Below the pieces are notes generated by a model that made no database searches, was not told the origin of the DNA, and saw only the letters and a program-made list of their open reading frames with translations. A DNA stretch of 64,000 nucleotides from Eledone cirrhosa (lineage: Eukaryota). A program made the position numbers and the translations under genes. Shown here in pieces: positions 23,361 to 60,577 of the stretch. The stretch is from positions 132,928,001 to 132,992,000 of the forward strand of contig OZ024742.1 of NCBI GenBank assembly GCA_964016885.1. The letters are read 5' to 3'. Positions within the stretch are counted from its first letter, which is position 1, and every line of letters begins with the position of its first letter.

Positions 23361-23818
23361 GAAAGACGTAAAAGAAGAAAATTATAAAAATTTACTTACT
23401 TACTAAAATTTCAATCCAACTATAGTTTCTGAAAGGGAATAAACATGGTTTCCGATTGGAACAACATGGAGAAATATCCTTTCGTCATCAGGGAGATATG
23501 TTCTAAGTAGGCAGTGATTTTTTCAATGTCCTGGGATTTAGTCCTCGCTTGCTTTTTTTCCATCCACTGAATTATTTTTGTATAAGTTCCCTGTGTCCAC
23601 GCATTGCCGAGGAAGTTTCATTTACGAATGAAAAATATTTATATTGTATCGACATGTTACACGCGTTCCGCAGAGGATTGGCTCTGGAGTCGGATGCATA
23701 ACTCCTATGTGTTACCTTGAGCCAATCCTCTGCCAAACGCGCGTAACAGGTTGATACACAATAACTATTTTTTCATATGTAAACACAACTTACTCGTTTC
23801 TTTCTATATATTAGTGTA
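23361..23818 (-). mobile_element. non-coding HHR-bearing element with internal hairpin (PLE-dependent, putative)
   Basis: Bounded by (TA)n; full hammerhead at 23415-23494; inverted repeat 23621-23685 versus 23718-23783. Confidence 0.65.
23415..23494 (-). ncRNA. type I hammerhead ribozyme with long helix II
   Basis: TCC-CTGATGA-c gaaagga...ccctttc a-GAAAC-TATA-GTT^GGA: helix I TCC/GGA, canonical core, palindromic TATA loop III, GUU triplet. Confidence 0.78.
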
Positions 23819-24859
23819 TTATATACACTCTGCCTGATTGATTTGGTTCCAACTCCAATAATTCACAGTACAAACCATATTATATATATATATATATATA
23901 TATGTATGTATGTATATATGTGTGTGTGTGTATGTGTGTGTGTGTGTGCGTGTGTGTGTGTTGTGTCTGTATGCGCGCGTGTGTGTGTGTGTATACAGTA
24001 TATATACATATATATGCAAGTGCCAGAACATACTTCAGAGGTTTTTTGTCAAATAAAATTGTTACCTTGGCTGATACTCGTATTCACTATAGATACACAC
24101 TCTATTTTATATATGTATAATTTGAAAGTTGTTGGACTAGAACATTGCAAGTGTATAAATTTACTGTGGGCATCCGACAATTTTAACACCTCTCCGTTGC
24201 TTTCATTATTGATTTCGATATGTTTTATCTAATCTATCTACATTTCCTTAATTTTCCAAAACTTTTCGTAATTTGCTGTTTCGGAAATATTTCACAATGA
24301 AACTAACGTACGTAGAAAATTAATTTCATAAAACTAAACTACGTTATTCACCACCAAATTTAAAATATTTAAATACTACAAAATGGTAACATATCAGAGA
24401 AATATACACTAACTATGAAATCGGAGATGTTATGATTATTACTACTGTTGTAGATGTGCTGTGTATTAAACTTTCATATCCGTTCATCCAAAACATGTAT
24501 TATCAAAAGCGTTTCTAGAAAAGCATGAACCTGTGTGATGCATCTTGTTTGGATTAGTATAATTTTACTATTTTAAGGTTCCACCAAATATGATGTATCT
24601 ATTTTCATTTCCATAACCAGGTCACCTCTCTTTATTGTTGTATTCCATATTGTAATTTGTAACACTATTGCATTTCTCTCGATCCTCGCGATCAACAAGT
24701 ACCAATAAAACAAACATTGGATTTTTTATCAATTGATGTTCTATTAGACAACACAACAAAATGTATCTGTTTTGTGATTCTATTTGTTTTCTTATGTTTA
24801 ATAATACTTAGCTATCGTATATGTCATTTACACAAGTTTACTATCTTATCTGACAGTTG

Positions 24860-25100
24860 CATTAGCTGGAGGTGATTTTGTCTTGCCTGAGATCTTTGGG
24901 AATATATATATTTTTATTTTTTGAATCTTGAATATGTAAACCATGATTCGGTACCATAAATACATGTGACGAAGAGGAATATGTAAAAAAATCATTGTAT
25001 TGAGCATTTCGTTTTTCCCAGTAATATATTATGTAATAATCTTTACTAAGACGGTGATTTAGGATTTGACAGATCTGAGATTTGGCTGCTATTCCTAAAA
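24860..25100 (-). mobile_element. possible very decayed LINE RT C-terminal fragment
   Basis: Minus strand CIYGTESWFT resembles the LYGxExW box of RTE-type RTs; little else is recognisable. Confidence 0.3.
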
Positions 25101-56159: not shown

Positions 56160-59049
56160 GAATAGTTAAAATGTACAATGTAAATACCCTTAAGTGAGGT
56201 TATTGGAGAAGATAGAGTAGAAAAGGAAGAGAGAAAAGTAGGGGAGAGGGAGAGAGAGAGAAAGATATGCAGGCGTTGGAGAAATAGGAGAGAGTGGTTT
56301 GTAGATATCTTAATCAAAATGTTATGGTAGGGGTTTTATTATATTGGTTACCTTTAGAGAGATGCGTTGATAGTCTAGGTTGGAATTATTTATTGCCCCA
56401 GAAGGCAGGTTCATAGATGTGGAGAGGGGGTGAGGTAGGTCAAAGGCGAGAGAGAGAGAGAGAGAGAGTGGAATGGATATAGAGGGAGAGATAGAGAGGG
56501 GACAGACGAAGTCTATGGGGTGGGTCAACTTTGGGTTCATAGTAATAATCTGCGAATTGCACTGAGTTACCATTTATAGTGATAAGCAGTGTATTGTCTT
56601 GTAGTGTGGGGGAAGAGAAGGTGATTAGCTAGAAAGCGATGTTATAGTTACGGGTTCGAATGTTAAGTTTTTTTATAGTGAGAGAATTTAGCTTTTAGTT
56701 TGGGGTTGCAGTATAATGATCGTTCGATTCTATCGTTAAGTAGTTTATTTTTGGATTTTAATAACAACCTGAAGGACCATAAGGTAAATTTTGACTCTAA
56801 CCCTAAGATCAGACTTATATGCCCTTCTAAATCAGATATAGGAAAAATTAGCAAACATATATTTGACAGAGTAATAACTCAAGTAAAAAGAAAATTGAAA
56901 TTAAATTATGGGGCAACACTAGTGAAGCAATTCGCTGGTTTAATAACGTAAAAAATAAGAATAAATCTAAGTTTATACAATTTGACATAGACGAATACTA
57001 CTCTTCAATCTCACCAAGCACTTTACGTAAGGCCCTATCGTTTGCTAAAGTCAATTCCGACCTAACGGAGGACGAAATTAATATTATTCTCGAGGCTAGA
57101 AAAACTATAATTAAGTTTGATAACTGCTACTGGGAACGTAAGGACAGACCCACAAACTTCTAAATTACCATGGGTTCCAACGACTCAGCGGAGGTCACGG
57201 ATATTGTGGGAATTTTCATAGCCCACATACTACATAATAAATTTAGTAATCTACAGGGAGGATATACAGAGATGACGGGCTCTTATTAGTTAATAACTTG
57301 AATAACCAAAATCTTGAAAGGCTACGGAAAAATATTAGAAAATCTTTTAGTGAACTGGGTCTAAAAATAACATACCAATACAATCTTAAAGTAGTAAATT
57401 TTCTGGACGTAACTCTTAACTTAAATACCGGACTGATACGACCCTTCCACAAGGTAAATGAGAACCTTACGTATATCAACTTTAACTCAAACCACCCACT
57501 CTCCATGATCAAATCGGTTCCCCGTAGTATTTCTCTTAGAATCTCTCGCCTATCGTCTCATTCTGAAATTGTTAGTGAACACGCTGAATACTATAATAAT
57601 GCATTAAGGAATGCCGACCACCGGGATACAATAGAATACATTGATAAGAATCTCCATAACACACATAGCTCTACATGAAATCAAGGAATACGTAACCGGG
57701 GGACTAAAATACGAGCGCACACACACAGTACCACCAGACATACTAATAATAGAAAATCACCACCAAATAAATCACGTTGTAGAAAGTATATCTGGTATAA
57801 TCCTGTTTTTAATGCCTCGATTAGTACAAAACTATCTCTTTCATTCTTTAAGTTAATCAACAAGCATTTCCCTAGTTCCCATAAATACAGTAAAATTCTG
57901 AACTCTAAAACTATTAGACTATCATACTCCACGGCACCAAACCTTGAAGCATACATAAAAAAACTTAACTTAAAGCAATTAAACAACACTACAAAACAAA
58001 ATATTTTGGTAACAGATGGGCAGAACGTAATATCTGCCTCCCAACCACTAAATGGGAGACGGGTATTACACAACCCACCTGTACTGCTATCACAAGCTAT
58101 CCATGGTATACCCGCTACCCACAACAAAATATGTAACTGCCATCTACCTGAAATATGTCCATTGAAGAATGAATGCCTAAAGTCCAACATTGTTTACCAA
58201 TGCATGGTTGAATCGAACGACCAGAAATGGTATTATATCGGATCTACCACCACCTCGTTTTAAATCTCGCTGCTACCGTTATCGATTCTCAATCAAACAT
58301 CCTGATCACCGTTTTGTGACCACGCTCGCCAACAAGACCTGGCAACTCCGTGAACGCAACCAACAGTTCACCTTAAAATGGGATATACTTTCCAGCGCAA
58401 GTGCATATCGGAGTGGATTGAAGTACTGTAGGTTATGTAACCTTGAACTCTTTTACATATTAAAATCCCAAAAGAAACTACTTAACGATAGAATCGAACG
58501 ATCATTATACTGCAACCACAAACTAAAAGCTAAATTCTCTCACTATAAAATAACTTAACATTCGAACCCGTAACTATAACATCGCTTTCTAGCTAACGAC
58601 CTTCTCTTCCCCCACACTACAAGACAATACCCTGCTTATCATTATAAATGGTAACTCAGTGCAATTCGCAGATTACAACTACGAACCCAAAGTTCACCCA
58701 CCCCATAGACTTCGTCTGTCCCCTCTCTATATCTCCCTCTATATACATTCAACTCTCTCTCGCCTTTGACCTACCTCCCTCCTTCTCCACATCTATGAAC
58801 CTGGCCTCTGGGGCAATAAATAATTCCGACCTTGACTATCAACGCATCTCTCTAAAAGTAACCAGTATAATAAAACCCCTACCATCACATTTTGATTAAG
58901 ATATCTACAAACCACTCTCTCCTATTTCTCCAACCCCTGCGTATCTTTCTCTCTCTCTCCCTCTCCCCTACTTTTCTCTCTTCCTTTTCTACTCTATCTT
59001 CTCCAATAACCTCACTTAAGGGTATTTACATTGTCCATTTTAACCATTC

Positions 59050-59161
59050 TGCTCTGATGATACAGTGGTCACAGCATTTGATATTTGAGTTCTGCAAATA
59101 GTTGAAAATGTGCACATAGCATAACTAGGCTGTATTACCACCGTGGAAACATTTGTAATCA
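59050..59161 (+). ncRNA. hammerhead with ~85-nt helix II domain (right arm, helix I mutated)
   Basis: TGCT-CTGATGA-tacag...ctgta ttaccaccgtg-GAAAC-ATTT-GTA^ATCA. Confidence 0.5.
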
Positions 59162-60577
59162 CACGGAATAAATTACCTTTTTTATGATGTCTACCTGTTA
59201 TTATTCATTCTACATATATATATATATATATATATATATATATATATATATATATATATATATATATATATATATATATATATATATATTTATTATGAGT
59301 GTACTAGAGGATGAACTATATATGTGTCTGCATCACTGAGAATATTGGACCGTCACCGTTGATTTTTTGTATGATTGTTATTTACATAAATGCTTACATA
59401 AATACATATATCCATCCATACATCAATACATTCACACATACATACATACATGCACACACACAGAGACACATACTCACATAAACACATATATACATATATA
59501 CATGCATCAATACATGCATACACACACACACACACACACACACACACACATATATATATATATATATATATATATATATATATATATATATATATATACA
59601 AATGTATATACATAAAACAAACAGATAACTCGATTTTGTACGGTTGTTTGTGTACCAGTGTGTGAATATTTTCATATATAACTTAAATCCAGAACTATAT
59701 TTATATACTTGTTAACTTAGCTCTCAATAATTTGTGTATGTATGATTGACAACCTAATGTTCCGAGGACGATTGTTCTCGTCGTGCTACCAAACCGTTCC
59801 TAAAATTAACGTGCTGGTGGATGAATATTTCACTTAAACTTGAGGCATTGCCTATTTCTTAGGAGAATTGAACGTGCGTTTGTTTGTGTACGACCCTTGG
59901 CCCTTCGGATCACAGGTTCAGTTGAGATTTGCCAGGTTATTAGGCAGAATCAACATGGATAGAGATGTGTTCTTCAAGTACATAACTTTCGAACACAAAT
60001 GAACTTTCTTTCTATCATGAGATGTATGTCCTAAACATTTACGTTTGTACATTTAAAATTCGTTTATATTTCGAATCAGATCACTTGAAATATCAAGGGA
60101 CAGAACTCTACAAGACACTGCAATCTAATTGCAAGAAGGTATGAGTAACGAAGGACAGGACACAATAGCTGTATATTGGTATGCATGGGCATACTACCAA
60201 AAGAACAAGAAAAGAAAATCAATCAGTGCTGACATAGACATATAAATAGTTGTGTGTGTGTTTTTATATCTTAAAGAATATTTTTTGTAATATGCGTTTG
60301 AATAGCCATATAACTATATGTGGTTGACAGTGAAAATTAGATAAAAAGTTGAAGCAACGGTTCAATTGTGTGGAGCAGAAGAACGCATATCCGTGTGTTC
60401 CAAGAATAGACCATAATGTACCTGCAGCAACCATAGGAAACAAATGAAAAATTACCTTTACCAAGAATGTTTCCTTTAAGTTGGGACATGCTATCATGTG
60501 AATACGTAATAAATAACACTGACCGTTTGCTTTTGCGAAATCAAATAGAATTATTTAGGGAATGACTAATCAAAATA

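Follow-up and report, generated by a model that had tools for sequence, protein, structure and literature searches.

We analysed a 64,000-nt stretch of the 3.0-Gb, AT-rich genome of Eledone cirrhosa (assembly GCA_964016885.1, contig OZ024742.1, positions 132,928,001 to 132,992,000 of the forward strand; hereafter the window), in which elements with predicted hammerhead ribozymes (HHRs) are inserted in (TA)n repeats as fold-backs of two inverted arms. Each element family has a short end (S) and a long end (L), whose positions are given in nt past the HHR cut, and nearly every fold-back with both ends joins one S arm to one L arm. These fold-backs are probably insertions of Hydra-clade Penelope-like elements (PLEs) and of non-coding passengers, formed when the two cut target strands each primed reverse transcription on a shared RNA, from starts that lie about 7 nt 5′ of twin bulged hairpins. 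Coupled priming on the two strands, which the strict pairing of one short with one long arm implies, is well supported. PLEs are the closest relatives of telomerase reverse transcriptases (RTs), and the origin of their inverted repeats and one-sided tail is called an open question in the available text of PMC8557442. The hairpin 7 nt past each start is a defined candidate cis signal, present in a family that numbers about 9,500 copies and retains an intact open reading frame (ORF), and the results correct the idea that the ribozyme sets the insertion ends.

Pairing of short and long arms

Self-comparison of the masked window together with inspection of its sequence placed fold-backs of families B to F at 29.6-31.5, 34.0-37.1, 53.5-53.9, 55.9-59.2 and 61.8-62.6 kb, and an element end of family A at 23361 (Table 1). 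The HHRs lay where a preliminary description of this DNA had put them, and in families A to E we found the first (TA)n base 57, 50, 46, 53 and 56 nt past the cut, compared with 57, 52, 49, 52 and 54 nt in that description, the discrepancies of 1-3 nt arising from TA microhomology at the junction. The arm asymmetry that it had reported was also borne out, since the partner arm runs past the short end by about 89 nt in B, 131 nt in C, 65-70 nt in D (whose window copy lacks about 20 nt of the family tail), 146 nt in E and, likewise, 89 nt in F. For mapping the ends of each family we used queries that held only sequence upstream of the short end (core-only) and obtained two sharp ends, with S/L at 58/173 in A, 50/~140 in B, 46/178 in C, 50/141 in D, 55/200 in E and 22-26/115 in F, and with 1-5 nt of TA microhomology at both S and L junctions. 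As had been proposed, the ends differ from the ribozyme cut, and each family has two discrete ones.

After manual review, 124 of the 128 fold-backs with both ends, from eight families, consisted of one S and one L arm (44 in B, 7 in E, 5 in C, 17 in A, 12 in F, 14 in D, 17 in N4 and 8 in N5), a count that leaves out the 118 of 206 loci with no visible partner, mostly with just 1.5 kb of flank. Prior to review the count was 117/125, and every reviewed anchor failure shifted towards S/L; a low-complexity L anchor had produced false pairs in family C, the pairing of which was recounted. For family B, the first 100 matches in genome order formed 60 clusters, of which 58 were examined, yielding 44 S/L fold-backs, one S/S, nine loci with L only, two with S only and two that were ambiguous. 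Since independent choice would yield half mixed pairs and not 97%, the choice of start appears to be coupled, and the pairing fits the earlier suggestion of priming on each target strand. We rejected N4 as a symmetric exception after finding 17 S/L fold-backs and one S/S; judging by its linker, N4 is Neptune-type, and the S/L rule therefore spans two clades.

The inverted arm had been equated with the long arm, and this did not hold. Among 42 insertions of family B, the arm reaching deeper into the element was S in 10 and L in 10, and the two arms stopped within 30 nt of each other in 22, so that a fixed polarity (short body arm, long inverted arm) was rejected; in the window fold-back of family F the body sits on the L arm. 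Either arm can be the body.

Short B fold-backs showed 28 distinct junction types in 31, with overlaps of 0-6 nt (microhomology) or short inserts, from which we conclude that they are independent events, and we rejected the alternative that they spread as whole units. A hot spot of their junctions (loci L121-L250) lies between -140 and -128 relative to the cut, where a long pyrimidine tract is closely followed on its 3′ side by a short palindrome. Within an insertion the arms are more alike than either is to other copies (0.037 vs 0.108 in D; 0.014 vs 0.024 in B), which fits one template and also gene conversion. Some arms are longer than one unit and read through the upstream HHR (L220, L246 and L250), as would fit a tandem transcript and a circle alike; on rank-specific variants in tandem arms, which bear on the choice between circle and multimer, L101 was the single informative locus. 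The 5′ ends of arms did not accumulate at the HHR cut: across 11 families, 7 of 441 arms ended within 6 nt of it. This was a weak test, because the sample favoured HHR-bearing arms, and family F was uninformative. Separately, seven L arms of family B end at +37 to +103, within or just beyond the tail, as though extension had been halted close to the S start.

Hairpins beyond the two ends

The tail starts with a bulged hairpin, composed of RYUC, a variable upper stem-loop, a UH bulge of 1-2 nt and GARY. This motif was present in 17 of 43 tail clusters obtained de novo, in 0 of 43 reverse complements and in 2.3% of shuffles, and it lies 6-11 nt past S (mean 7.6, SD 1.4; 20 families). The upper stem, which had played no part in choosing the 3′ strand, was paired in 59 of 60 cells, compared with 38.3 in partner shuffles, none of 20000 of which reached 59; kinship among families inflates this score somewhat. 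The outer pair covaries between A-U and G-C in 19 of 20 families, and the motif retains G-U pairs and the bulge, as is typical of RNA structure.

In tandem copies of families A, B and E, a second hairpin lies 6-8 nt beyond L, so that family A carries both. Patterns that did not specify a hairpin also recovered it in C (3 of 6 matches, running into the ORF) and in family H33, bringing the families with a hairpin past L to five, two of them found blind. The order in B is cut, S at +50, hairpin 1, L at about +139, hairpin 2 and ATG at +187, and in B, C and E the two ends and both hairpins lie downstream of the HHR cut and upstream of the start codon. Lying beyond L, hairpin 2 is never inside the terminal copy, and the template must therefore have been either a tandem transcript or a circle cut by the ribozyme.

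Proposed priming on both target strands and its alternatives

We propose that each hairpin would seat one RT subunit, with the start about 7 nt 5′ of it, that the two target strands would take one start each, and that the two cDNAs would stop at variable points before being joined head to head by end-joining; both the seating of subunits on the hairpins and the end-joining are what we infer. The spacing of about 50 nt would then be an inherited, loosely kept spacer between the ribozyme and hairpin 1 and not a measurement. Only tentatively do we go further, to a scheme in which Hydra-clade PLEs insert double-ended, a protein dimer on twin hairpins in the 5′ untranslated region copying a single RNA simultaneously from the two target strands, and the template being a ribozyme-cut, circularised monomer. 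The circularised monomer is suggested by both hairpins lying outside inserted copies, beyond their ends, and a short way 3′ of the ribozyme cut, with hairpin 2 never in the terminal copy. If true, such a template would give the hammerhead a job and regenerate tandem copies, and any RNA with both hairpins, such as a retrozyme, could be inserted.

In the twin priming of L1, reverse transcription of one RNA is primed by both target strands and the resulting inversion is joined by microhomology; the second primer anneals upstream, at a site that varies, and the segments lack overlap. Here, by contrast, both starts are fixed and close together, and the arms overlap as a fold-back. A precedent is PAc, a Poseidon PLE of Anolis (Frangieh et al., 2024; PMC11167929), whose protein cuts and extends both strands and whose RT starts internally, at two tail-bounding sites downstream of the HHR; in the available text the HHR is dispensable in vitro, the RNA 3′ of the start is required and a dimer is predicted. 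PAc belongs to a different clade and starts inside the ORF, at an AC-rich stem-loop, the main start lying ~85-92 nt past the cut, and neither start-to-strand coupling nor a repeated hairpin is reported in that text. The accessible parts of PMC3846280 (Arkhipova et al., 2013) describe Penelope elements of Adineta vaga with head-to-head inverted pseudo-long terminal repeats (pLTRs), junction palindromes and a 31-bp tail on one pLTR; there the tail is called optional, and self-priming, perhaps with an antisense template, is given as the origin of the inversion; few copies are described, with no pairing statistics. An inverted copy with a one-sided tail has thus been described before (PMC3846280, PMC8557442, PMC8969392), as have minimal HHRs in pLTRs and the idea of a circle (PMC4209133, in the text available). 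The literature that we searched (older subscription papers, figures and most supplements not covered) contained neither the pairing rule nor the twin hairpin. Element class, tail and two internal starts are known, and the S/L pairing rule and the hairpin are new relative to that literature.

Several points weigh against the proposed priming on one RNA at twin hairpins. Four fold-backs are discordant (three S/S and one L/L), and three others with a non-standard end (L250, L038 and L035) were not counted. An HHR-independent scan found 96 inverted pairs adjoining (TA)n, 15 of them symmetric, in an uncurated set in which several symmetric pairs are simple repeats or separate neighbours. Similarity between arms is weak in A, N4, E and C, and could be due to gene conversion or query bias. 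The hairpin was absent from N4 (0 of 22 long copies), and because N4 keeps the S/L rule the hairpin is unnecessary for coupling in general. For PAc, start sites on the top and bottom strands are alike in bulk in the part of PMC11167929 consulted, pairing lying outside its tests. Finally, the DNA alone fits one RNA or two RNAs in an asymmetric complex, and sequential as well as simultaneous priming; the mechanism proposed for these families is drawn from DNA sequence.

The second of these options, in which each strand primes on its own RNA within one complex whose asymmetry or fixed order assigns hairpin 1 or hairpin 2, we consider improbable. It accounts for the S/L rule equally well, it spares the L-started enzyme from displacing the S-started cDNA, and in older families the arms do diverge by a few percent. 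However, the arms share subfamily variants above random copies in D and B, and two hairpins spaced 80-150 nt apart in tandem on a single RNA would explain the asymmetry more simply.

A snap-back, in which a cDNA primed at L folds at a palindrome and copies itself, the second arm being trimmed at S, is related to the self-priming idea in the text available of PMC3846280 and seems to us quite unlikely as the general route. The clustering of B junctions on the short palindrome at -140 to -128 and the 22 of 42 B insertions with both arms stopping within 30 nt speak for it, but a snap-back copy cannot outreach its template, and the S arm is the longer one in 10 of the 42, by up to 3.4 kb, which excludes snap-back as the sole route; an S-primed cDNA would also be unable to template the tail. 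Snap-back may account for part of the class with short, symmetric junctions.

We hold it very unlikely that the asymmetry is resolved at the DNA level, with both arms starting at one site and the endonuclease trimming one of them at S by reading the hairpin motif as DNA. A one-sided tail follows naturally from such trimming, to which the tail is ascribed in PMC8557442 (endonuclease-mediated resolution), and the D. virilis endonuclease requires tail sequence for cleavage (cited in PMC11167929; both papers in their available text). In vitro, however, RT starts fall at both tail boundaries (PMC11167929, same text), the G-U pairs and bulge of the motif typify RNA structure, and hairpin 2, which lies beyond L and is never in terminal DNA, could act only on the template.

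The preliminary description had treated both ends as fixed by their distance from the HHR cleavage site in four families, with the first priming about 50 nt away and the second farther off. The distances are real; the families are not independent, as B, C and E share a PLE clade and D has 73% identity to B. In four pre-chosen 200-kb genome blocks with 83 matches to an HHR descriptor, the distance from cut to (TA)5 did not follow a flat distribution, the outcome that the description had named as speaking against it: 23 of 83 matches fell at 30-65 nt (2.8 expected; 3 in an upstream control) and 30 of 83 at 130-189 nt (3.5 expected). Across 25 families, several of them represented by 1-4 copies, S lay 17-274 nt past the cut, with 12 of 25 at 43-60 nt; the range was 17-75 nt, with one at 274 nt, in hairpin-bearing families, 17-26 nt in those with a long stem III and 75-229 nt in five hairpin-less ones, and L lay at 94-340 nt. 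We also computed the distance for the 24 published Hydra consensi from the lengths and HHR positions in File S1/S2 of PMC8557442 (as available, position taken as 5′ flank start): 10 end 30-48 nt beyond the cut, 2 at 63-70 nt, 11 at 88-153 nt and 1 at 355 nt. Given this spread, a short cut-to-end spacing is a loose clade trait, and about 50 nt is a mode, not a ruler. Despite the 30-65-nt peak, the 12 families at 43-60 nt and the 10 consensi at 30-48 nt, we rejected measurement from the ribozyme as barely credible, since the 17-274-nt spread largely refutes it, the spacing of S to the hairpin (6-11 nt) is ten times tighter than that to the cut (SD 14 in hairpin families even without the 274-nt outlier), and HHR mutants of a Poseidon PLE insert normally in vitro (PMC11167929, available text).

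Element families, ribozymes and other features of the window

Families B, C and E are assigned by their motifs to the Hydra clade of C-terminal-endonuclease PLEs (Craig et al., 2021; PMC8557442), with which, in the text available, they have in common RW[KR], DKT, a CxCX5C linker, a GIY-YIG-type domain with CxxC and CxH, a canonical-type HHR, (TA)n targeting and an inverted 5′-truncated copy, often with a single-ended tail. The N-terminal RWK-type motif reads RIRWRA in B, RVRWRA in C and RVRWKA in E, and DKT replaces DKG (SDKT in B, ADKT in C, DKT in E at L055). The C-terminal region of B, CNCRDRSKC...YVG...CDLC...CKH, contains the linker, the GIY-YIG-type domain, CxxC and CxH, and CxCX5C linkers are present also in the window copies of C and E. 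The HHR lies near the 3′ end, insertion is into (TA)n, and the insertion architecture is that of endonuclease-containing (EN+) PLEs (5′ truncation, partial tandems, inverted 5′-truncated copy, one-sided tail). Nematis/Neptune, the first clade candidate, was dropped for Hydra, and Pfam and PDB sequence searches with the B protein gave nothing useful. Tails measure 66-165 nt here compared with 30-40 nt in the Hydra clade of PMC8557442, the available text of which contains neither the near-obligate S/L pairing nor the twin hairpin. For family B an ordinary DNA search came back empty, its words being too common, and a pattern search was used instead, which gave 9,546 genome matches at <=2 mismatches; an intact relative of B (L220) has a 4119-bp unit with a 737-aa ORF. 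Family D is a further relative of B.

Family A is non-coding, with a period of 535-537 bp, one type I HHR per unit and up to three units per arm, and thus appears to fit the non-LTR retrozyme pattern of non-coding tandem units; N5 is also built of non-coding tandem units, of 466 bp and with a single type I HHR apiece, and has S at +229 and L at +299. Metazoan non-LTR retrozymes, treated as PLE passengers in the available text of PMC7229834 and bioRxiv 10.64898/2026.07.22.740005, likewise consist of tandem non-coding units that each contain a single type I HHR. Unlike them, the arrays of A and N5 end in PLE-type S/L fold-backs, in A with both hairpins. A circular RNA form of family A is putative. 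N5 (L369-L379, L384-L385) also builds satellite-like arrays many kilobases long.

HHRs were called on core motifs plus three stems, and those of the window have the conserved core, stems I-III and palindromic loop III of type I minimal dimeric HHRs; they are predicted ribozymes, with putative self-cleavage. The HHR descriptor, loosened after a first strict version had missed the window motifs, gave 89 matches in 864 kb (83 in the 800 kb of genome blocks, plus the window) compared with 1 in reversed sequence. A search of the window with Rfam models returned no hammerhead, even at E<=1, and single-sequence folds of five HHRs were no more stable than shuffles (z -1.2 to +0.8). Three families carry core variants of putative activity: position 4 is C throughout family C and A throughout family F (identified by eye, together with a long stem III), and H33 has a U3-A8 core with a 17-nt palindromic stem III (L356 and other copies). 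The notion of a family F without ribozyme was dropped once its variant core had been identified by eye. In one family A fold-back of three plus two units (L100/L101), the base at cut-site +1 is G in both terminal units and A in the three internal ones, where it would weaken stem I of the ribozyme; this is a single case.

Table 1. Coordinates of fold-back arms, predicted HHRs and hairpins in the window.
Feature	Position	Strand	Remarks
Family A, end of non-coding element of ~535-bp tandem units	23361..23608	-	HHR 23418-23491; S end 23361, 57 nt beyond cut
Family A, truncated partner stub	~23504-23608	+	
Family B fold-back (probable Hydra-clade PLE)	29558..31536	both	
Family B S arm	HHR 31437-31486, end 31536	+	
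Family B L arm	HHR 29697-29746, tail ~29558-29646	-	
Family B hairpin box 1	29620..29639	-	7 nt beyond S position
Family C fold-back	33952..37059		body on +: decayed CxCX5C linker and GIY-YIG remnant ~35090-35510
Family C S arm	HHR 36975-37013	+	core variant CCGNUGA
Family C L arm	HHR 34128-34166, tail 33952-34081	-	131-nt tail
Family C hairpin box 1	34042..34074	-	7 nt beyond S position
Family D fold-back (73% identical to B)	53518..53865		S arm on -, HHR 53571-53619
Family D L arm, very short	~53776-53865	+	tail without 3′ half of hairpin box
Family E fold-back	55852..59213		decayed RT and GIY-YIG body on +, ~56770-58460
Family E S arm	HHR 59054-59157	+	
Family E L arm	HHR 56052-56155, tail 55852-55997	-	146-nt tail
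Family E hairpin box 1, long loop	55926..55989	-	7-8 nt beyond S position
Family F fold-back	61777..62642	both	
Family F S arm	variant HHR 61803-61844	-	HHR identified by eye; end 22-26 nt beyond cut
Family F L arm and body	HHR 62488-62528, tail 62555-62642	+	box 62560-62604

Elsewhere in the window, a Neptune-type PLE fold-back occupies 16229-19024, with a decayed ORF on the minus strand, a CX4CxxC linker and a tail of only ~21 nt; a possible U3-A8 hammerhead, seen by eye at ~16440-16470 (-), would place its short end ~210 nt beyond the cut. A family resembling N4 is represented by a short fold-back at 411-644 with a 45-nt tail and by a second stub at 26395-26495. Further hammerhead cores were found at 19127 (+), 26816 (+; 65 nt to (TA)n) and 61590 (+), and another Hydra-type linker on the minus strand near ~4608. 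LINE-like RT pieces in both orientations, at ~21960-23254, reach the (TA)n that hosts the family A element. A tRNA-headed repeat family, likely a SINE, is present at 5024-5307 and 37081-37538, one copy being folded back, and contains Rfam tRNA matches above the gathering score at 5089-5160 and 37227-37297. Adjoining an N4 insertion, an open reading frame at L345:2896 (-) resembles a Wnt-family exon.

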